Virus record (IMG/VR): IMGVR_UViG_2617271086_000006
DNA length: 13,662 nt
Reading direction: 5' to 3' (one strand)
Source: a virus
Lineage: Duplodnaviria > Heunggongvirae > Uroviricota > Caudoviricetes
Each line of letters begins with the position of its first letter. Position 1 is the stretch's first letter. This document shows positions 1 to 9,544 of this stretch, piece by piece. The notes under the pieces were generated by a model that worked only from the letters and a program-made list of their open reading frames with translations, ran no database searches and was not told the origin of the DNA. Both the position numbers and the translations under genes were made by a program.

Positions 1-319
1 TTGCCTCCCCCCCGTTGATGGGTAAAATAGCCGCAATTTTTCGTTTTCAACAAGCGCGGCGCGATGCCGCTTACTCAAGAAGAAAGAATTATGACGTTGT
101 CTCCTTATTTGCAAGAGGTGGCGAAGCGCCGCACTTTTGCCATTATTTCTCACCCCAATAATTAAGCCTAAATTAAAGCTCTTTTACTCTTTCAAAATCC
201 TTTCAGTTAATTGAGGTTGAGCAATATAACTCATTTAAATACATTTAGTTATGTGGCTTCTTTAATTGAAAATTCTTTCATGTAACTTTAAATCGATCTG
301 CTTGCTTTCATCAAAAATC

Positions 320-376
320 TGTACATATGCTTGTACATAATGTACAAAGCAGCAGAGGTGTTTTGCGATTTGTACA
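320..376. repeat. Cluster of four TGTACA hexamers upstream of int, including the perfect 15-bp palindrome TGTACATAATGTACA (332-346)
   Basis: Read directly: TGTACA at 320-325, 332-337, 341-346 and 371-376, ending 10 nt before the int start codon. Candidate protein-binding sites, function unknown. Confidence 0.35.
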
Positions 377-385
377 AGGTGAGTA

Positions 386-1609
386 ATGGCGCTGTCTGAT
401 GCGTGGTTGCGTTCAGTCGTTGGAAAGGAACGTGATAAGGTTTTGGTTAAATCCGATCGTGATGGTCTGTCTGTCAGAGTATCACCGAAAGGTCGCGTAG
501 TGTTCCAATATCGTTATCAATGGGCAGGGAAAGGTGAGCGTCTTGATATCGGAACTTACCCGGCAACTGGATTAAAAGAGGCCAGAGAAGAAGTTATCCG
601 TCTCCGTGGTGAACTCGAGTCAAACCGTAATCCACGATTGGTCAAGCAGGCTGAAAAACGAAAAGCTACTGAAGCCATGACGGTAGAGTCTGTGATCCGT
701 GCCTGGTATGAAGCATATTGTGTAAAAAATAAAAAAGGCTCTGAACAGATACTCCGCTCGTTTGAGCTGCACCTGTTCTCTAAAATCGGGAATATCCCTC
801 ACGATGCAGCTACATTGCATGATTGGTTAGAAGTCCTGGAGCCTCTTAGCACTAAGACTCCAGCAATAGCAGACCGATTGCTAATTAACGCAAAGCAGGC
901 CCATGTCTGGGCGTATAAGAGAAAGCTCATTGAAACTCGCCCGCTGTCGGATATCACGGGTAAAGATATGGATATCCGTAAAGGTCAGAAGAAACGGTTT
1001 CTGACACATGATGAAATTAAAATCCTTTATGCTGCGATCGATGGTTCTCGAATGGTTCCTAAATACCGGGCCTTCATTAAACTATTGCTGCATTTTGGCT
1101 GCCGTAGTTCAGAGCTAATTACCGCCAGGGTGGACGATTTTGATTTCATTAATAAAGTATGGACTGTACCACCAGAACGACATAAGACTGGGGAGATAAC
1201 GGGCGAACCGCTAAAACGGCCCATTATTGAACCGGTTGAAGAGCTTATAAAGTACGCTATTTCTATGAACAATGGTTCCGATATGCTTTTTACTAAGGAA
1301 GGAAGCAGGGAACCCGTTGGTCGGACATCATTGCAGTCGCTGCCTTACAATTTAATGCAGTATGCATGGCGGCGTTTGGGGTATCAATTCCCTCATTGGT
1401 CTCTGCATGATTTGAGGCGAACAGCACGAACAAACTTTTCTGATCTTACTGCGCCTCATATCGCAGAAATAATGCTCGGTCATAAACTGCCGGGGGTATG
1501 GCAAGTTTATGACAAGAGTGATTATTTAGAAGAACAGCGTAAAGCCTACCAGGCATGGTGGGAGAGAGTTGAATCGATTGTTACTTGTTCTGGTTCAGAC
1601 ACCAACTGA
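386..1609 (+). CDS. int: Tyrosine site-specific integrase (phage integrase family, P4-like)
   Basis: 407-aa ORF. Catalytic-domain signatures GCRSSEL (box I Arg), HDLRRTART (His-x-x-Arg) and a C-terminal Tyr region (VWQVYDKSDY). N-terminal region resembles the arm-binding domain. GGTGAG Shine-Dalgarno-like sequence 4-5 nt upstream of ATG 386. Confidence 0.9.
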   Translation: MALSDAWLRSVVGKERDKVLVKSDRDGLSVRVSPKGRVVFQYRYQWAGKGERLDIGTYPATGLKEAREEVIRLRGELESNRNPRLVKQAEKRKATEAMTVESVIRAWYEAYCVKNKKGSEQILRSFELHLFSKIGNIPHDAATLHDWLEVLEPLSTKTPAIADRLLINAKQAHVWAYKRKLIETRPLSDITGKDMDIRKGQKKRFLTHDEIKILYAAIDGSRMVPKYRAFIKLLLHFGCRSSELITARVDDFDFINKVWTVPPERHKTGEITGEPLKRPIIEPVEELIKYAISMNNGSDMLFTKEGSREPVGRTSLQSLPYNLMQYAWRRLGYQFPHWSLHDLRRTARTNFSDLTAPHIAEIMLGHKLPGVWQVYDKSDYLEEQRKAYQAWWERVESIVTCSGSDTN

Positions 1610-1781: not shown

Positions 1782-3035
1782 ATGAAAGTCGAAATGAATA
1801 CTAAACTTTTGGCCTATTTAAACAATGAGTTACATGGAGTGTGGATAGATAGTGAAAATCGTAATATCCACATAATACTTAAATCAAGCCTTCCTATAAT
1901 TAAATCCGTCTGGTCAGGAGCACCTATCCACTTTTTGGTAGGTTTATCTACTAAAAATATACTAGTGATTGGGATGTTGATTGAAGATAATGTCGATAAT
2001 CCATTTTTACTAGCCTATCCACCAAGAGAGGCAGATGAAATTAAAGGGCTGGATTTGTTATTGTCAGGCGCTTATGATGGTATTCTATTATCATTTTTTG
2101 ACTCGCATACAATGCGTGTTATGGACCTGAAAATAAAAGTTTCGGAAAATTTACCGTGTGAATGTTTAAAAAAATTTTGTGCTAATTCATATTCTCTCAA
2201 TTCAGGATTTAGGGAAGGTAATGAAGCAATGGATGAATTCTGCAACAATGCTTTGACTGGTAACGAGAAAATAATTAGTCTGCCACTAAGTGTAATCGAT
2301 AAAAAATCTTACCTAGCAAGTGTTCATGAACCAAACGATACCGTATTAACATATGAATTTAGCGTCAGTGAAAACGGCTCTGAGGGATATGAGCAGGAAG
2401 CTCTTATATACCATGCTTTGCGGCAGGTCTTTTCACCGGAGGAAGTGTTTTTTTCTCCAGATATTATTGAGGGTAATAAAAAAAGAGAACTAGTTGATAT
2501 TCTTATTGTAGAAAATGACTATGTATTATCTATACAGTCTAAAGCATCATCTTTGATTGAAATGGGTTTAAAATCTCATGAAAAGCTTTGTAGCATGTAT
2601 AAGAAAAAAGCATTGCAAGGGATCGATCAGGTTAAAGGCGTTATCCCAATTCTAAATAATGATGTGGTTATTAATTATGACGGGAGGGAATGCTTAATAA
2701 AGCGCAGAAAGGGTATTTATCATTTAGTGATAATCTCAGATCTTGTTTTAGAGAAAGAAGGTGCTGAAAAGATTTATAACGAAATTAGCAACCTTAAAGA
2801 GTCAAAAGGGGCGAAAGTTTTAGTTATGAGCCTTGAAGGTCTTGTAAATTTTATAAGACTATCAAGATTAAATAAAAGAATGTTTTGGGCAATGCTGGAG
2901 ACTAAATACAAGTTCAGCATAAAAAACCGTACAATTTTAATTAGAGATATCGACTCTAGCCAAGAGAATAATCTACCATTACTTGCCACTGATCAATACC
3001 TATCACTTCTTCGAGGTACGGGAAAATTAAAATAA
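1782..3035 (+). CDS. AT-rich cargo (moron) protein of unknown function with a putative PD-(D/E)xK nuclease-like core; candidate defence or abortive-infection protein
   Basis: 417-aa ORF, visibly AT-rich compared with the roughly 50% GC flanks. Residues about 201-254 show helix EGYEQEALIYHALRQ, then strand ELVDILIV (Asp), then strand YVLSIQSK (Q-x-K), i.e. a D-x12-QxK arrangement as in Mrr/NERD-type PD-(D/E)xK folds. Start may be ATG 1782 or the in-frame ATG 1794. No confident family assignment. Confidence 0.7.
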   Translation: MKVEMNTKLLAYLNNELHGVWIDSENRNIHIILKSSLPIIKSVWSGAPIHFLVGLSTKNILVIGMLIEDNVDNPFLLAYPPREADEIKGLDLLLSGAYDGILLSFFDSHTMRVMDLKIKVSENLPCECLKKFCANSYSLNSGFREGNEAMDEFCNNALTGNEKIISLPLSVIDKKSYLASVHEPNDTVLTYEFSVSENGSEGYEQEALIYHALRQVFSPEEVFFSPDIIEGNKKRELVDILIVENDYVLSIQSKASSLIEMGLKSHEKLCSMYKKKALQGIDQVKGVIPILNNDVVINYDGRECLIKRRKGIYHLVIISDLVLEKEGAEKIYNEISNLKESKGAKVLVMSLEGLVNFIRLSRLNKRMFWAMLETKYKFSIKNRTILIRDIDSSQENNLPLLATDQYLSLLRGTGKLK

Positions 3036-3220
3036 ATTGTATCAATGATACTGTTGCCACGTATCGAGACTGGCTTATGAACGGAAGGGTTTTCCAGCAG
3101 TTCAGCGACCGGAGCTGCACATCGATGCCGGATTGTGCCTGCAATTATGTACTTGGCTAAGAGGTGCTGCTGGCTCTGGATAGAATAACCCTAACGTCCA
3201 AAGAGCGCGCATTTTCATGT

Positions 3221-3262
3221 AAAAAAATAAATAGCTTGTCTGCTCTTGATACAGAGCAGACA
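3221..3262 (-). terminator. Rho-independent terminator candidate ending the leftward early operon
   Basis: Inverted repeat TGTCTGCTC (3237-3245) / GAGCAGACA (3254-3262) with an 8-nt loop. On the minus strand the stem is followed by AGCUAUUUAUUUUUUU (plus-strand A-run 3221-3233). Confidence 0.5.
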
Positions 3263-3320
3263 GTCAGATCTGTTTGGCTTGTGCCATAGATGTGCCAGCT
3301 CACATTTGAGCTAATGTTTG

Positions 3321-3515
3321 TTACTCAATTACTCCTGCAAACCTGTATATCTTACGTGATGCCCATTTATTTGGGCAGGATTTAATATCAGGATCTGGAA
3401 AATCAGGCCGATATTTCTGACCAGTCCTCCGGTTTACACTGTTCCAGCGAAGCACCGTCGATATTGAAACGCCACAGAATTCGGCGACTTGTTTTGTTGT
3501 CATTAAGTTGTTCAT
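3321..3515 (-). CDS. AlpA/excisionase-like small HTH DNA-binding protein (putative Xis/regulator)
   Basis: Trimmed to the internal Met (MNNLMTTKQVAEFCGVSISTVLRW...), giving 64 aa. Its start codon overlaps the upstream gene's stop as ATGA (3512-3515). HTH-like segment followed by an FPDP motif, as in AlpA/HTH_17 proteins. Last gene of the leftward operon, the usual xis position. Confidence 0.55.
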   Translation of the reverse strand: MNNLMTTKQVAEFCGVSISTVLRWNSVNRRTGQKYRPDFPDPDIKSCPNKWASRKIYRFAGVIE

Positions 3516-3859
3516 TGTTGACCCTCCTGTGGTTGTGCAGTTGAAAGACTCATGCCCGCGCGTTGTTGCCAGACGACCCAGCCGAGAGCCATATCCCACG
3601 CCATGTACTCGTTATCACCGTTTTTTGCTCTCCGACGATCGACTGTTTTACCGAAACGCTTTTCCATAAATAATTCATAGGCTGCGCGTTCATCTGGCTC
3701 AACTTCCAGAGATGCCAGTGCAATCCGTGCCAGTTCTAAATCATCTTCAAGCTCAGCGCGAATCTCAGCGAATGCACTCTGTGTTAAGGCGAACTCAATG
3801 CTCTGCACTTTATTCCGTGCGCGCTCAAGCAGTGCATGGTAGTTAATTTCGGTTGTCAT
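3512..3859 (-). CDS. Hypothetical early-operon protein (115 aa)
   Basis: ORF with ATGA overlaps at both ends (3856-3859 and 3512-3515). GAGG/AGGGG Shine-Dalgarno-like sequence upstream. Acidic, helical-looking sequence with no recognised motif. Confidence 0.7.
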   Translation of the reverse strand: MTTEINYHALLERARNKVQSIEFALTQSAFAEIRAELEDDLELARIALASLEVEPDERAAYELFMEKRFGKTVDRRRAKNGDNEYMAWDMALGWVVWQQRAGMSLSTAQPQEGQQ

Positions 3860-4734
3860 ACCCCTACCTCTTCGAATTTCAATACCAATTGATCACCCCA
3901 GATTTCACATGACTCTGAACACGAGCCGGTATCGAATCGCCTGGCCTGTACCATCGCCTGATACAAATTTCTGTAGTCGCTGTTGGCAGACATTCTGGCA
4001 ATTCCGTCAAGCGTCAGGTGACCACGGTACATAACGTCTTTACCTGTTCTGCGATGACCATCCCTGACGTGTTTGCCTGTAACCAGCTCATTAAAAACTC
4101 GCATCAGACCAGGTTCGTCTTTACATGCAAGCCCCAGCTTTTGCGTTGACTTTTTGATGCAGAAAACACAGTTCCCGAGATGCTCCGGGATTTGCAAATC
4201 AAAAGGTTGTTTTCGCCACCACCGGATAACATCCGACTTATCAAAATCTGACAGTTCGGCAAGATACCGGACGCCCGATTTCGGTTTCAGCCTACGGGGT
4301 TCGTCTGCACGAATACCCAGCCATGTGATGTAATTACCTCGCCCGAAATGGTTATCGCAGTATTTCGTGAAAGGGATGAGTTTTAGCCTGTCAGTACAGA
4401 ACGCGCCGCCGATGTATGGCGTGCCGTACTTTTTAACCATGTCCATAAACGGTTTAAGTACCGGCATTCGCGTCTGAATATCCTTTGGCTCCCATTCTGT
4501 ATAACCATTTGGCTGCCCAAGCTCAGGATTGATATCGACCTGCAACACAGTTAGTGGTATGCCCCAGAACTTCACAACCTCCCGAATAAAGCGGTATGTC
4601 AGCGGATGTTCGCAACCGGTATCCATAAAGATGTAGCAGACGTTATTGCCAGCCTTTCTTTGTTCTTCCATCAGGTGAACAAGATATGCAGATGTTCTCC
4701 CGCCGGAAAAACTAACTACATGAGTTATGCACAT
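3856..4734 (-). CDS. Phosphoadenosine phosphosulfate (PAPS) reductase family protein (PP-loop ATP pyrophosphatase superfamily)
   Basis: 292-aa ORF. N-terminal PP-loop motif VVSFSGGRTS (SGGxxS). GGAG Shine-Dalgarno-like sequence 9 nt upstream. Start overlaps the upstream gene's stop by 10 nt. Confidence 0.85.
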   Translation of the reverse strand: MCITHVVSFSGGRTSAYLVHLMEEQRKAGNNVCYIFMDTGCEHPLTYRFIREVVKFWGIPLTVLQVDINPELGQPNGYTEWEPKDIQTRMPVLKPFMDMVKKYGTPYIGGAFCTDRLKLIPFTKYCDNHFGRGNYITWLGIRADEPRRLKPKSGVRYLAELSDFDKSDVIRWWRKQPFDLQIPEHLGNCVFCIKKSTQKLGLACKDEPGLMRVFNELVTGKHVRDGHRRTGKDVMYRGHLTLDGIARMSANSDYRNLYQAMVQARRFDTGSCSESCEIWGDQLVLKFEEVGV

Positions 4735-5261
4735 TTGCGTAACTCCGATAACTCGTTAAAACGTTCCATAAACATCCCGTAGGCATGTCCTGGTGCCAGT
4801 GGAATCACTTTGAACATCTCTGTTGCCGGGATACCTTCCAGTACAGGCCAGAAAGAGCCATCATCAAGCCCGAGATCGCGGCGTTCGGTTGCCAGCATAA
4901 TGAGATCGGCATATTTCACTGGCGTGCTCATAACAGGAGGTAACCCGTATTTCTCACGGATTACGGCGTCTATTTTTTCTTCCATCTGTTTATAGTCAGG
5001 AAGAAGGCGTTTCAGTGGCGCGGGGATGTCCTGACAATACGCTTCTGTTGCATCATGCATTAACGCTTCAAAAGCAAACTCCTCCGGAACCAGTTTGCTG
5101 CAAAGCACCGCATGTTGGGCGACGCTGTAGAAGTGTGAAAGATGACCGGCAAAGCGACAGATATTTGAAAGGGAAACTGCGATATCGTTAATCACGATGT
5201 CGTCTTTATTTATCCTGTCATAATAAAAATGCTTCCCGGAAAAAGTTTTAATAAATGACAT
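4725..5261 (-). CDS. yfdR: HD-domain phosphohydrolase, YfdR-like
   Basis: Trimmed to the internal Met (MSFIKTFSGKHFYYD...), giving 178 aa, which matches the length I recall for E. coli CPS-53 YfdR. HD signature (H...ALMHDATEAY). GTGGAG Shine-Dalgarno-like sequence 7 nt upstream of ATG 5261. Confidence 0.85.
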   Translation of the reverse strand: MSFIKTFSGKHFYYDRINKDDIVINDIAVSLSNICRFAGHLSHFYSVAQHAVLCSKLVPEEFAFEALMHDATEAYCQDIPAPLKRLLPDYKQMEEKIDAVIREKYGLPPVMSTPVKYADLIMLATERRDLGLDDGSFWPVLEGIPATEMFKVIPLAPGHAYGMFMERFNELSELRKCA

Positions 5262-6279: not shown

Positions 6280-6642
6280 TTAACGACCTGCTGCGCGGAG
6301 TTTTCCGTCAGGTTCACCGGCAAGAGTCAGTAATTGTCCTTGGTCTTCCTGCAGAATAGTCAGGCGACCACCGCGATTGACATACATCGGCGTTTCGGTG
6401 GTGTCTTCTTCGGAAATTTTCCCGCGGTTAGTCGGGCGAACATATGAGAGTTTGTGTTTGATTTTTACACGGTTCTCATCAAACGGTTCGATTTCCAGGT
6501 TGAGCGAGACCTTACCTTTGGTTTTCGTGTTCATCACACCGGAAGCGACTTCACTGAGAACAGCGCCGATTTTGGTTTCAAATACGCCGCCGTCCAGCTC
6601 CCCGATAAATGCCTGCACATCAGTACTGCGTTCGCTAGCCAT
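6280..6642 (-). CDS. YfdP-like small protein (120 aa), first gene of the leftward operon
   Basis: The track ORF (182 aa, TTG-initiated) is trimmed to the internal ATG at 6642 (MASERSTDVQ...), which is preceded by GAGGAG at 8 nt. Resulting length 120 aa. Confidence 0.8.
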   Translation of the reverse strand: MASERSTDVQAFIGELDGGVFETKIGAVLSEVASGVMNTKTKGKVSLNLEIEPFDENRVKIKHKLSYVRPTNRGKISEEDTTETPMYVNRGGRLTILQEDQGQLLTLAGEPDGKLRAAGR

Positions 6643-6779
6643 TTTGCTGCTCCTCATCATATCGACCCCGCAAGGTCGGTTGGTTTCTCCACAAAACAGA
6701 GAAGAACACCAGCGGTGGCAGCCGCCCGGATGGATTGGGTTATGAGCCCGTCGTCCGGTGATGCCCTTCTCTGTTTTGT

Positions 6780-6825
6780 AAAAAGAGCGGTACCAGCCGG
6801 AAGCAAGTGTACAAACTGGTACCGC
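6780..6825 (-). terminator. Stem-loop plus U-tract in the PL leader (tL-like terminator candidate)
   Basis: Perfect 10-bp inverted repeat GCGGTACCAG (6787-6796) / CTGGTACCGC (6816-6825) with a 19-nt loop containing TGTACA. On the minus strand it is followed by UCUUUUUACAAAAC, which also resembles a boxA motif (CGCTCTTTTTA). Confidence 0.4.
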
Positions 6826-7320
6826 CAAAGCAGTGGCTGTTGTGGTGACCGGTGCTGATCTCCGGCTTGCGGTTATTTCAGACTCTCACGGGCGTTTAAT
6901 TGCCCCGCCGAACAGCTCTTTTCCGCAATAGCTGCAATGTCTTTCGCGCATCAGCCTGCGCATTCACCACAACGCTGAGAGCATTGCCGGTGTCCGAATC
7001 GAACGGACCTTTTCCCTGCCCAACCCTCCCATCTGAATGGGACTGTCTGGAATTGAACCAGCACTTATGCCTTGCTCGTCAATGCTCTCATCGTTGCGTC
7101 CTGGTCTCTTCCCAAGCGTCAAACCGAATCGCCACGCTGGTTAGGCGTCTTATCAGCATCCTCATTGACTTGCACATTCCGGCTACCTGGTTTGTTTGCC
7201 CGAGCAAGGAGTGGATTATCCCCTTTAACGTCCCCAGACCGCTAACGACGCATGTGCCATACGCCGTGTTACAACCAAATTTTGTTTGAATCTTGCCTGC
7301 CTCATGTTTCTTTTGGATAC

Positions 7321-7348
7321 ATTATGTATCTCATAGGTACATTGTCAA
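7321..7348 (-). promoter_or_regulatory. Putative PL promoter with embedded operator OL
   Basis: Minus-strand -35 TTGACA (plus 7343-7348), 16-nt spacer, -10 CATAAT (plus 7321-7326). The spacer and -10 are overlapped by an operator-like site TGTATC-N5-GGTACA (7325-7341). Confidence 0.5.
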
Positions 7349-7387: not shown

Positions 7388-8062
7388 TTAGGCCTTTATT
7401 GTGTATCTTCTTGGTTTTCCCGAGAAAATCACTGTACCAATTATAGAGCAATTACCGTTAATCTTAATGTAAGGCTCAGGCCAGTTTGGGTTTAATGCTT
7501 TGAGATAACGCTGTGTTCCATCTTCTATCAACCGCTTGAAGGTGGTTTCGCCTGAATCGTGCATCAATGCAATAACGTCGTCACCGTGGCAGGCAGGGAC
7601 TTCAGGATCAACAAAAATCATGTCTCCCGGGCGGTACTCATCAATCATTGAATCACCAATCACCCGCAAGATATAAGTCATTTCGCCACAGGGTACAGGG
7701 CAGGGATAAGTTTCTGCTGTGCTCAAATCAACCTCAGAATAGCCAACTTCTTTCCATGCTCCGGCCTGTACCCATGATATGACAGGGACTAACGTTATTT
7801 GTTTGTTAGTGATTGAAACATCAGGTTTTTTTGTGATGTTCGTGGTCTGGTGTTCTTGATCAAGCCATCCGACAGGCAGGTCGAAACATTTTTCGATGTG
7901 CCTTGCCATGCTGTCACCGATATTTTTAGTAGCACCATCTCCCATAAACCTGCTGGTCTGGGTTGGCTCGCGATCAATCATGGTGGCAAAGGAAGAATTC
8001 CCGCCAACACCATCTCTCAGTTTTCTGGCGTTAGACCGCCGGATGTCATGGACTGTTTTCAT
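7388..8062 (-). CDS. cI: CI-type prophage repressor (N-terminal HTH, C-terminal S24 LexA-like autopeptidase)
   Basis: 224-aa ORF. Ala-Gly autocleavage site (VQAGAW), Ser nucleophile motif GDSM and Lys in TFKRL. Divergent from the cro-like gene. No Shine-Dalgarno sequence close to the ATG, so the mRNA may be leaderless as for lambda PRM. Confidence 0.9.
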   Translation of the reverse strand: MKTVHDIRRSNARKLRDGVGGNSSFATMIDREPTQTSRFMGDGATKNIGDSMARHIEKCFDLPVGWLDQEHQTTNITKKPDVSITNKQITLVPVISWVQAGAWKEVGYSEVDLSTAETYPCPVPCGEMTYILRVIGDSMIDEYRPGDMIFVDPEVPACHGDDVIALMHDSGETTFKRLIEDGTQRYLKALNPNWPEPYIKINGNCSIIGTVIFSGKPRRYTIKA

Positions 8063-8948: not shown

Positions 8949-9544
8949 ACAGTTTAACGGCAAATAACCGTTTGTCGCAACAGCTGGTGGTCAGCGTCGC
9001 TGAACACCTGTTGTTACGGCATGAATGCAGATTACCAAATCTCCTGGCTGTAAGTAACCACAGAGAACTTTACCTGACTGTGGGGGGCGAGTTGTGCAGG
9101 AACTTAACCGCTGGTTTCGTGACGGAAGAGGACTTTATGTTCATGTTATTCGTTGGGAGCCAGAAACACAGCGCGTTATCTATCTTCGCAAAGACTACCC
9201 GCATGAGTGCTTTAGTCCTTTGTGGAAATTCAAGCGTGATTTTGTTGAGTGTGAAGGACCACCAGCACATTGATTCTGCCATTCCGGGACGTTACACTGT
9301 TCAGGCACCTTATAAAGCGGGTGCCGGGATTGGCGTCCTGGAATTGATCAAGGCGATATATGACGCGCCAGCGTCTTTTTTATCGTCCGCATTTGCTCAC
9401 ATCAAAGTTATGGTGGGCTGGGCGGGGGCATCGAAAGATGCGCCGGTTTCCTTGATCACCGGTTACGCCAACCCCGTTCAGTTCACCACCAGCGAAATTG
9501 GCGTTTCCGGTGGTGGAAGTGGAACAAACCAGCCCATGAACTGA
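8945..9544 (+). CDS. Hypothetical protein (199 aa)
   Basis: Long ORF coupled to the upstream gene by an ATGA overlap (8945-8948). No recognised motif. A shorter protein-like reading (about 58 aa from GTG 9094) exists in another frame. Confidence 0.5.
   Translation: MNSLTANNRLSQQLVVSVAEHLLLRHECRLPNLLAVSNHRELYLTVGGELCRNLTAGFVTEEDFMFMLFVGSQKHSALSIFAKTTRMSALVLCGNSSVILLSVKDHQHIDSAIPGRYTVQAPYKAGAGIGVLELIKAIYDAPASFLSSAFAHIKVMVGWAGASKDAPVSLITGYANPVQFTTSEIGVSGGGSGTNQPMN

Follow-up and report, generated by a model that had tools for sequence, protein, structure and literature searches.

The window analysed here, a 13,662-nt stretch of viral DNA (IMG/VR record IMGVR_UViG_2617271086_000006) taken at its full length, is an E. 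coli lambdoid prophage with 100% identity to APEC O78. Between its cI-like repressor gene and yfdP lies a gap that is bare in RefSeq, and the 678-nt leader studied here (6643-7320) runs through this gap from the early-left promoter, PL, to yfdP. This leader carries a conserved, structured RNA of 178 nt, called the core below, which belongs to a new RNA family of temperate phages of the Enterobacterales. The core is a structured phage leader RNA and possibly an antiterminator. Read from PL, the transcript is a chain of RNA domains, namely the core, a long hairpin (P6), a tRNA-shaped scaffold (module C) and a strong intrinsic terminator (T1), and yfdP follows only after T1 (Table 1). A preliminary description of the window had also pointed to the structure of this leader, and in that it was right. 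All the elements it listed are present at the places given, but those it stressed, two small hairpins and a boxA-like string, are lineage-specific or unconserved, and the part that is conserved, the core, had not been singled out. The finding is real but lies on a different element than the one first stressed.

The core is built of five helices (P1 to P5) and a pseudoknot, and its length among members of the family is 153-185 nt. When the shared 5' module of ten phages was aligned, long invariant blocks were seen to alternate with variable stretches. The structure was derived by eye from 30 sequences of less than 92% identity, and consists of four covarying nested helices, the variable P3, and the pseudoknot. 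On these 30 sequences 97.6% of the cells were paired, versus 26-46% with slid partners, and 11 pairs showed double-sided changes; none of 500 shuffles attained the pairing and change values. A covariance model (R1), which leaves out the pseudoknot, aligned 100 members, 85 of them distinct. On the 85 distinct sequences, pairing was 97.1% of cells versus 26-45% with slid partners, and compensatory changes were found at 13 pairs. The pseudoknot, although outside the search model, has a pair that is C-G in 54 sequences and A-U in 23, with no exceptions; the window lineage has the compensated A-U form (AACC/GGUU). A possible second pseudoknot, between GCACAU in the P1 loop and AUGUGC, pairs perfectly in 85 of 85 sequences, and because both sides are invariant there is no covariation either way. 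All the family features are present in the window core: P1, P2, P4, P5, the pseudoknot, and the blocks UAUGGCACAUG, AGCGGUC, GGUAGCCGGAAUGUGCAAG, GGCGAU and GAAGAGA. G-U pairs in the core fix the RNA strand as the strand read from PL. No reading frame open across the core in every member was found, and the length differences between members are not multiples of three. Given the compensatory changes and the invariant loops, seen in more than 85 distinct sequences from three phage groups, the core is an RNA fold under purifying selection. The proposal that the leader is non-coding, highly structured and holds an unannotated RNA is therefore strongly supported. Covariation across homologues, the check proposed for it, was found in the core; the two small hairpins are specific to one lineage. 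As a separate observation, the P2 loop of the core (about 7205-7196) has a conserved YCCUUG(A) motif, CUCCUUG in the window and GGUUCCCUUGAU in short variants, which looks like an anti-Shine-Dalgarno sequence; the motif nearly equals the loop of hairpin 2 (CCGGUUUCCUUGAUCACCGG) of the C4 RNA in the same prophage (9406-9493).

Lambdoid, P1-like and epsilon15-like phages carry the core, and all of the contexts examined were phage or prophage. Its exact 19-mer GGTAGCCGGAATGTGCAAG was found in at least 120 viral contigs and in 24 species-representative genomes, 22 of Enterobacterales and two metagenome bins labelled Bacillota. The two bins (L144 and L156, with the labels Oscillospiraceae and Bacillota) hold a perfect core copy, at 171 bits in L156, and were probably mis-binned, the contigs being from enterobacterial phages and the labelled taxa not true hosts. 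The invariant blocks are kept in hosts from Escherichia to Erwinia. By BLAST, 1831 of 5426 complete E. coli genomes have the core, at 1910 chromosomal and 554 plasmid places, and every one of the matches listed was in unannotated DNA. The core was not found in two K-12 prophages: e14, which has the same ymfK type of repressor and a gap of only 174 bp, and Qin. Scans of the window and eight diverse members against Rfam 15, by gathering score and by E-value, found no match on the core; the Rfam search that had been suggested for the window leader likewise gave nothing on the core, and no tRNA match at the two small hairpins. Nor did Rfam 15, the annotation of records or the literature open to searching, which excluded subscription journals, yield a description of the core; a preprint on the Pas small RNA (sRNA) is about late-region sRNAs. 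Several records have likely false 'hypothetical protein' coding sequences on or against the core, the adjoining tRNA-Arg gene or the leader cassette, including phiV10 (L007) 948-1199 (-), L009 766-1017 (-), and Ayreon (L002) 3116-3310 (+) and 3412-3531 (-).

The genomic settings of the core were surveyed at 129 loci containing the 19-mer; the window was added for the terminator count (130), and the upstream gene was scored at 114. When the leader was compared with phage genomes by a sensitive BLAST, it proved to be a mosaic whose non-coding modules recur in unrelated phages and often touch tRNA genes. In P1, P7 and D6 such modules are flanked by tRNA-Ile and ban; in the epsilon15-like phages SPN9TCW, phiV10 and BUCT711 they immediately precede tRNA-Arg; in Klebsiella phage IME207 they occupy a non-coding gap ahead of tRNA-Ser and tRNA-Arg; and in Klebsiella phage Chronis they come directly after tRNA-Asn. 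At 18 of the 129 loci, all P1-like, tRNA-Ile(CAU) ends 8-10 nt upstream of the core, and at 28 tRNA-Arg(UCU) begins exactly at the 3' foot of P6, so that a tRNA touches the element at 46 loci; at the other 83 no tRNA is close by. A homologous cI-like repressor gene is directly upstream of the core, on the same strand, at 64 of 114 loci. In the window and in Ayreon, P1 starts 52-53 nt past the PL -10 box, and in phiV10, L081 and L096 the core lies about 90-120 nt past promoter-like sites. More generally, a promoter-like site is found within about 50-150 nt upstream of the core, the exception being the P1-like phages, where a tRNA precedes. In every case the core comes first among the conserved elements of an early transcript under repressor control. 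Downstream, an intrinsic terminator is present within 1.5 kb at 105 of 130 loci, at a median distance of 189 nt. In phiV10, T1 (14 bp) and a second terminator, T2 (6 G-C pairs, U7), are followed at once by the Shine-Dalgarno (SD) sequence and ATG of the next gene. No promoter-like site was found between T2 and that gene, or between T1 and yfdP in the window. In L093, L050 and L031 a bidirectional terminator and convergent genes for membrane proteins come between the core and the point where the early genes resume. L031 has tandem cores, at 4800-4961 (-) and 3993-4156 (-), 650 nt apart in a core-gene-core-gene order, each preceding a convergent gene for a multi-pass membrane protein (166 aa and 163 aa). 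Behind the core there seems to be a hotspot for accessory genes, which might serve in superinfection exclusion.

The unconventional RNA-based antitermination that the preliminary description had considered is plausible, as it fits the place of the core and the terminators behind it. The reading we favour, tentatively and at something short of an even chance, is that the core acts in cis to let transcription pass the terminators behind it. The nascent core would fold and act on the very RNA polymerase that made it; the polymerase would become resistant to T1, to other terminators and to untranslated cargo inserted behind the core, and the promoterless early genes would then be expressed without an N protein. 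The core would be a functional analogue of the put RNA of HK022, made from an unrelated and larger RNA. For phages of the LLS/ST64B type, an N homologue has been reported absent and an RNA mechanism has been speculated on (PMC12315714). From its site just past PL, put RNA works on RNA polymerase unaided; it needs no transcript tether and suppresses both intrinsic and Rho-dependent termination (PMC9378689). The core resembles the put RNAs (putL and putR of HK022 and the putL-like RNA of HK639) in being non-coding, in lying just downstream of the early-left promoter and ahead of terminators in an N-less lambdoid phage, in the slot that N and nutL occupy in λ, and in that, by analogy, it could act without a phage protein. 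The likeness does not extend to the RNAs themselves. put is about 70 nt with two stem-loops (PMC9378689), versus 178 nt, five helices and a pseudoknot for the core, and the core is present in one copy, on the PL side only, and is found also in P1-like and epsilon15-like phages beside tRNA genes. Model R1, at E-values up to 10, found no match in the HK022 genome or in HK639 25000-49576, the region that holds the annotated putL-like RNA. The put-like reading proposed earlier, taken as family membership, thus fails on both homology and architecture. With N/nutL (boxA/boxB) of λ the leader shares the genomic slot and the presumed need to read through early terminators; it differs in that the window lacks a conserved N-like Arg-rich open reading frame (ORF), and in that its boxA-like string is an unconserved arm of a terminator.

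Several observations weigh against read-through in cis. The PL operon of the window has a single core and its PR operon has none. K-12 Qin has homologous P6-like, module and DicF regions and yet lacks the core, and dicB is reportedly still expressed through the DicF terminator in the dicB operon. P1 and D6 have no clear terminator from the core to ban or orf6. The direct tRNA contacts described above, and the tRNA-like modules downstream of the core, are left unexplained by antitermination, unless long untranslated transcripts need protection from Rho; the core and P6, being G-rich and C-poor (C/G 0.6-0.73), would themselves be poor Rho loading sites unaided. The conserved T1-spacer-T2 unit suggests that terminated products matter. 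Finally, an element acting persistently would not need the second copy found in L031.

These tRNA contacts are central to a second explanation, which we regard as possible though on the doubtful side: the core, with or without P6, would be cut from the early transcript as a stable, trans-acting RNA that binds a conserved host machine. The flanking tRNAs or tRNA-like modules would supply the cuts: RNase P would cut where the tRNA or scaffold behind the core begins, 3' processing of the tRNA would cut upstream in P1, and RNase III might cut in P6. Such an RNA would be the enterobacterial counterpart of GOLLD and ROOL, the phage RNAs of tRNA islands. Both kinds of contact, tRNA-Ile(CAU) before the core and tRNA-Arg(UCU) at the P6 foot, fit this explanation, and loci without a tRNA keep the CGUU|GUGG junction, followed by a scaffold with an acceptor-like stem starting GUGG. 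The cassette closes with conserved terminators, as an independent RNA gene would, and in some members a terminator right after P5 gives an RNA of about 200 nt. The long invariant single-stranded blocks, from Escherichia to Erwinia, suggest a conserved binding partner. GOLLD and ROOL are likewise phage-borne, complex, pseudoknotted RNAs that often adjoin tRNA genes, and have a conserved part and a variable part, or linker, able to carry tRNAs or tRNA-like elements (PMC12286853). They are also much larger, at about 580-800 nt or more versus 153-185 nt, their Rfam models had no match, and the core differs further in its restriction to Enterobacterales and its fixed position at the start of the early operon. 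A gene for a trans-acting RNA would not need to stand so strictly first behind an early promoter and in front of co-oriented genes, and at the 83 loci noted above a true tRNA is not nearby. Cutting and action in trans would in any case be compatible with a cis role, and do not exclude read-through. Taking these readings together, we lean slightly towards the view that the core is a new RNA class acting alone on a conserved host machine, either as a protein-independent processive antiterminator unrelated to put or as a tRNA-linked phage RNA with an undescribed function.

T1 is the basis of a third explanation. The hairpin with a U-tract that the preliminary description had noted is this terminator, and T1 is a conserved end-piece of the cassette (GGCGGU..ACCGCC UUUUUACA) in lambdoid and epsilon15-like members. 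The boxA-like string CGCTCTTTTTA of the same description is the 3' arm of T1 with its U-tract, and relatives read CGCCCUUUUUA; boxA was rejected as part of a terminator and unconserved. The T1 of Ayreon is identical to that of the window, and the leader module before it is 87% identical over 134 nt to K-12 Qin DNA immediately 5' of dicF, so that, by sequence comparison, T1 stands at the position that DicF occupies in Qin. In Qin (L161) the segment homologous to the Ayreon-type leader is at 2741-2874, dicF is at 2883-2935, and a P6-like hairpin is found further upstream; the region of the DicF precursor seems to be a relative of the cassette that lacks the core. The dicB operon resembles the operon of the window in that it is early, adjoins the immunity region of a lambdoid prophage and is untranslated over a long distance. 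This untranslated DNA includes a P6-like hairpin, a module of the scaffold type and a terminator-hairpin sRNA, through which transcription must pass to the genes behind. The dicB operon differs in that ydfA, ydfB and ydfC occupy the place of the core. The main product of the leader might then be a DicF-like base-pairing sRNA made from T1, with the upstream domains mere precursor or processing signals. Besides the shared position, the T1 5' arm CUUUGGCGGUACCAGUUUGUAC resembles DicF GUUUGGCGGUAUCAGUUUUAC, and the Rfam DicF model (RF00039) gave weak matches, of 20-22 bits, on the T1 of two relatives. The gathering score is 48 bits and was reached in none of 11 further loci, and in the window the model had no match at E-values up to 10. 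In a crude test of pairing with the ftsZ start region, 71% of shuffles equalled or beat T1, versus 3% for DicF, and the T1 loop and 5' arm differ from those of DicF. T1 was accordingly rejected as a true DicF targeting ftsZ, and of the earlier suggestion of an sRNA the position stands and the match to DicF does not. A DicF-like product would also leave unexplained the far stronger conservation of the core, which is present without T1 in P1 and D6. We consider this explanation improbable. The RfaH ops element, a 12-nt consensus GGCGGTAGnnTG on the non-template strand, was also considered; judged by eye, the core reads GGUAGCCGG and T1 reads GGCGGUACCAGU, with misfits at positions 8, 11 and 12, and the phiV10 T1 is further off, so that this candidate was rejected.

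The two hairpins with near-identical loops that were stressed at first are present in the window on the minus strand, and both lie in P6. P6 was found at 70 of 130 loci and is typically 70 nt long; its base is conserved and its tip hypervariable, and in the window lineage the tip is expanded to give a P6 of 127 nt, the extra length holding both hairpins. Defined as T-arm-like by a stem of at least 4 bp and a UUCRANN loop, two such hairpins in the 678-nt leader compare with 0.03 expected (P about 2 x 10-4, 5000 first-order Markov resamplings). They are common to the window and SPN9TCW and absent from the P6 tips of other members, and are specific to this lineage. A tRNA or tmRNA at these hairpins or in module C was rejected, since ARAGORN (default and relaxed) and Rfam RF00005 gave nothing credible; at an 80% threshold ARAGORN draws a poor tRNA-like fold at 6977-7066, with a 2-nt 'anticodon'. 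In the epsilon15-like phages the 3' foot of P6, CGUU|GUGG, adjoins the first base of tRNA-Arg, and in the window the same junction opens module C. Conservation in module C covers the 5' part (GUGGUGAAUGCGCAGGCUGAUGCGC) and the 3' part (GCCGGAGAUCAGCACCGGUCACCAC), between which the interior is hypervariable and unrelated among the 19 variants compared. Module C is 96.6% identical over 149 nt to the Klebsiella phage IME207 module mentioned above.

Module C, as distinct from the core, bears comparison with STnc100 (RF02076), which has a similar closing stem (xUGGUGAAU ... CACCAx), a 5' hairpin and a variable interior, and also occurs beside phage tRNA arrays. The sequences are unlike, and the STnc100 model had no match in the window. 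In L096, a prophage that also carries the core, a full STnc100 (82 bits) is found beside four tRNA genes (686-887 (-) and 1218-1522 (-)), and a weak STnc100-like match (33 bits) is upstream of tciA in P1 (L004 571-690 (+)). The design of an acceptor-like stem with a variable interior is common to STnc100, module C and the Qin/Ayreon module. P1 also has a copy of the 5' part of module C (GUGGUGAAUGCACAGGCUGAUGUGC; L004 about 270-335 (+)), about 1.2 kb upstream of its core and on the strand opposite the annotated plp gene.

The earlier claim that the leader has no N-like gene and no minus-strand ORF reaching 60 aa was confirmed, with one exception: the yfdP frame, if extended mechanically upstream to a TTG at 6828, crosses the terminator. 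The RefSeq start of yfdP is the ATG at 6642, preceded by the SD sequence GAGGAG. The remaining minus-strand ORFs of the leader are 24-52 aa. The micro-protein once considered for the leader finds no support among relatives: a 26-aa Arg-rich ORF has lost its ATG in the 97%-identical phage Ayreon, and a 25-aa ORF inside module C is replaced in relatives by unrelated peptides of 6-39 aa. Coding by a plus-strand ORF (6900-7289) and its counterparts was rejected, as the frame is not open in all members. A PHROGs search of the window early genes found cI, Cro-like and CII-like proteins and no antiterminator. The last explanation, that the leader is a decayed phage tRNA array or a gene for a small N-like peptide, with no RNA function, draws on the T-arm-like hairpins, the acceptor-like closing stems, the poor ARAGORN fold and the short Arg-rich ORFs, and is very improbable given the compensatory changes and invariant loops of the core, the unmatched tRNA models and the unconserved small ORFs. 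For the P6 tip and the module C interior, decay may still be an apt description.

The features of the leader and its flanks are collected in Table 1. The PL promoter and the palindrome overlapping its -10 box are arranged in Ayreon as in the window, and the terminator of the cI-like gene is at 7375-7353, just upstream of PL. The full leader folds better than shuffled sequences, with z = -2.6 from only 20 shuffles. The segment that forms the yfdP 5' untranslated region (UTR) is common to SfV, SfII and ST64B, where it lies upstream of yfdP homologues; its long hairpin may serve RNase III processing or translational control. After yfdP the early-left operon continues with yfdQ, a dNMP phosphatase gene and a PAPS-reductase-like gene.

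Table 1. Positions of the leader RNA domains and flanking features in the window
Feature	Position	Strand	Remarks
cI-like LexA/S24-family repressor gene	7388-8062	-	context gene upstream of leader
PL promoter, TTGACA-16-CATAAT	7321-7348	-	score 11/12, top promoter match in window
Palindrome GATACATAATGTATC, putative operator	7330-7316	-	overlaps PL -10
Core, conserved structured RNA	7093-7270 (178 nt)	-	cmsearch 140 bits, E about 1e-40, all 164 model positions
Core P1	7266-7262 with 7250-7246	-	loop UAUGGCACAUG (7261-7251) invariant
Core P2	7237-7234 with 7190-7187	-	interior variable
Core invariant block GGUAGCCGGAAUGUGCAAG	7187-7169	-	
Core P3	7168-7149	-	variable hairpin
Core P4	7148-7134	-	loop CUAACCA; 7-nt family loop YUMACCA
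Core pseudoknot	AACC 7142-7139 with GGUU 7125-7122	-	P4 loop with downstream strand (GGUG in family)
Core P5	7116-7100	-	loop GAAGAGA
P6 long hairpin	6970-7096	-	base conserved (CAACGAUGAGAGCAUUG ... CAAUGCUCUCAGCGUUG), tip hypervariable
T-arm-like hairpin 1, CUGG-UUCAAUU-CCAG	7047-7061	-	in P6 tip; common to SPN9TCW
T-arm-like hairpin 2, GUCCG-UUCGAUU-CGGAC	6992-7008	-	in P6 tip
Module C, tRNA-shaped scaffold	6842-6970	-	closing stem GUGGUGA/UCACCAC
T1 intrinsic terminator, GGCGGUACCAG...CUGGUACCGCU	6780-6826	-	11-bp stem and U5, -20.7 kcal/mol
yfdP 5' UTR	6643-6779	-	long hairpin and SD GAGGAG
yfdP UTR hairpin, 14-nt arms	ACAAAACAGAGAAG 6779-6766 with CUUCUCUGUUUUGU 6704-6691	-	between T1 and ribosome-binding site
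yfdP	6280-6642	-	first protein-coding gene, early-left operon

Elsewhere in the window, a 417-aa ORF at 1782-3035 (+), between integrase and the end of the early-left operon and on the strand opposite that operon, has no assigned function (full-length match to phrog_30399) and looks like a cargo gene. In the PR operon, Rfam matches to the isrK Hfq-binding RNA (9305-9381 (+), 64 bits) and the C4 antisense RNA (9406-9493 (+), 82 bits) lie side by side, a pair of the P1 immI / Gifsy-1 isrK-type module. A RefSeq 'ash family protein' coding sequence appears to overlap both RNAs when APEC O78 coordinates are converted to the window, and its start may therefore be mis-called.

Many phages that lack N, among them those of the e14/mEp460/LLS type and several Stx2-converting phages, express early genes that lie behind terminators. 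For how they do so, the core is a concrete, conserved and testable candidate where the literature had only speculated on a put-like RNA (PMC12315714). A pseudoknotted RNA with long invariant loops would also be a new family, absent from Rfam, in the best-studied bacterium and in the classic phage P1. Annotation has passed it over in P1, in Stx-converting and epsilon15-like phages and in about one third of the E. coli genomes sequenced, and several phage records put spurious 'hypothetical proteins' over the element, for example PhiV10p04 and three Ayreon ORFs. The contact of the core with tRNA genes and with tRNA-shaped scaffolds parallels the unexplained link of GOLLD and ROOL to tRNA islands, here in a genetically tractable host.

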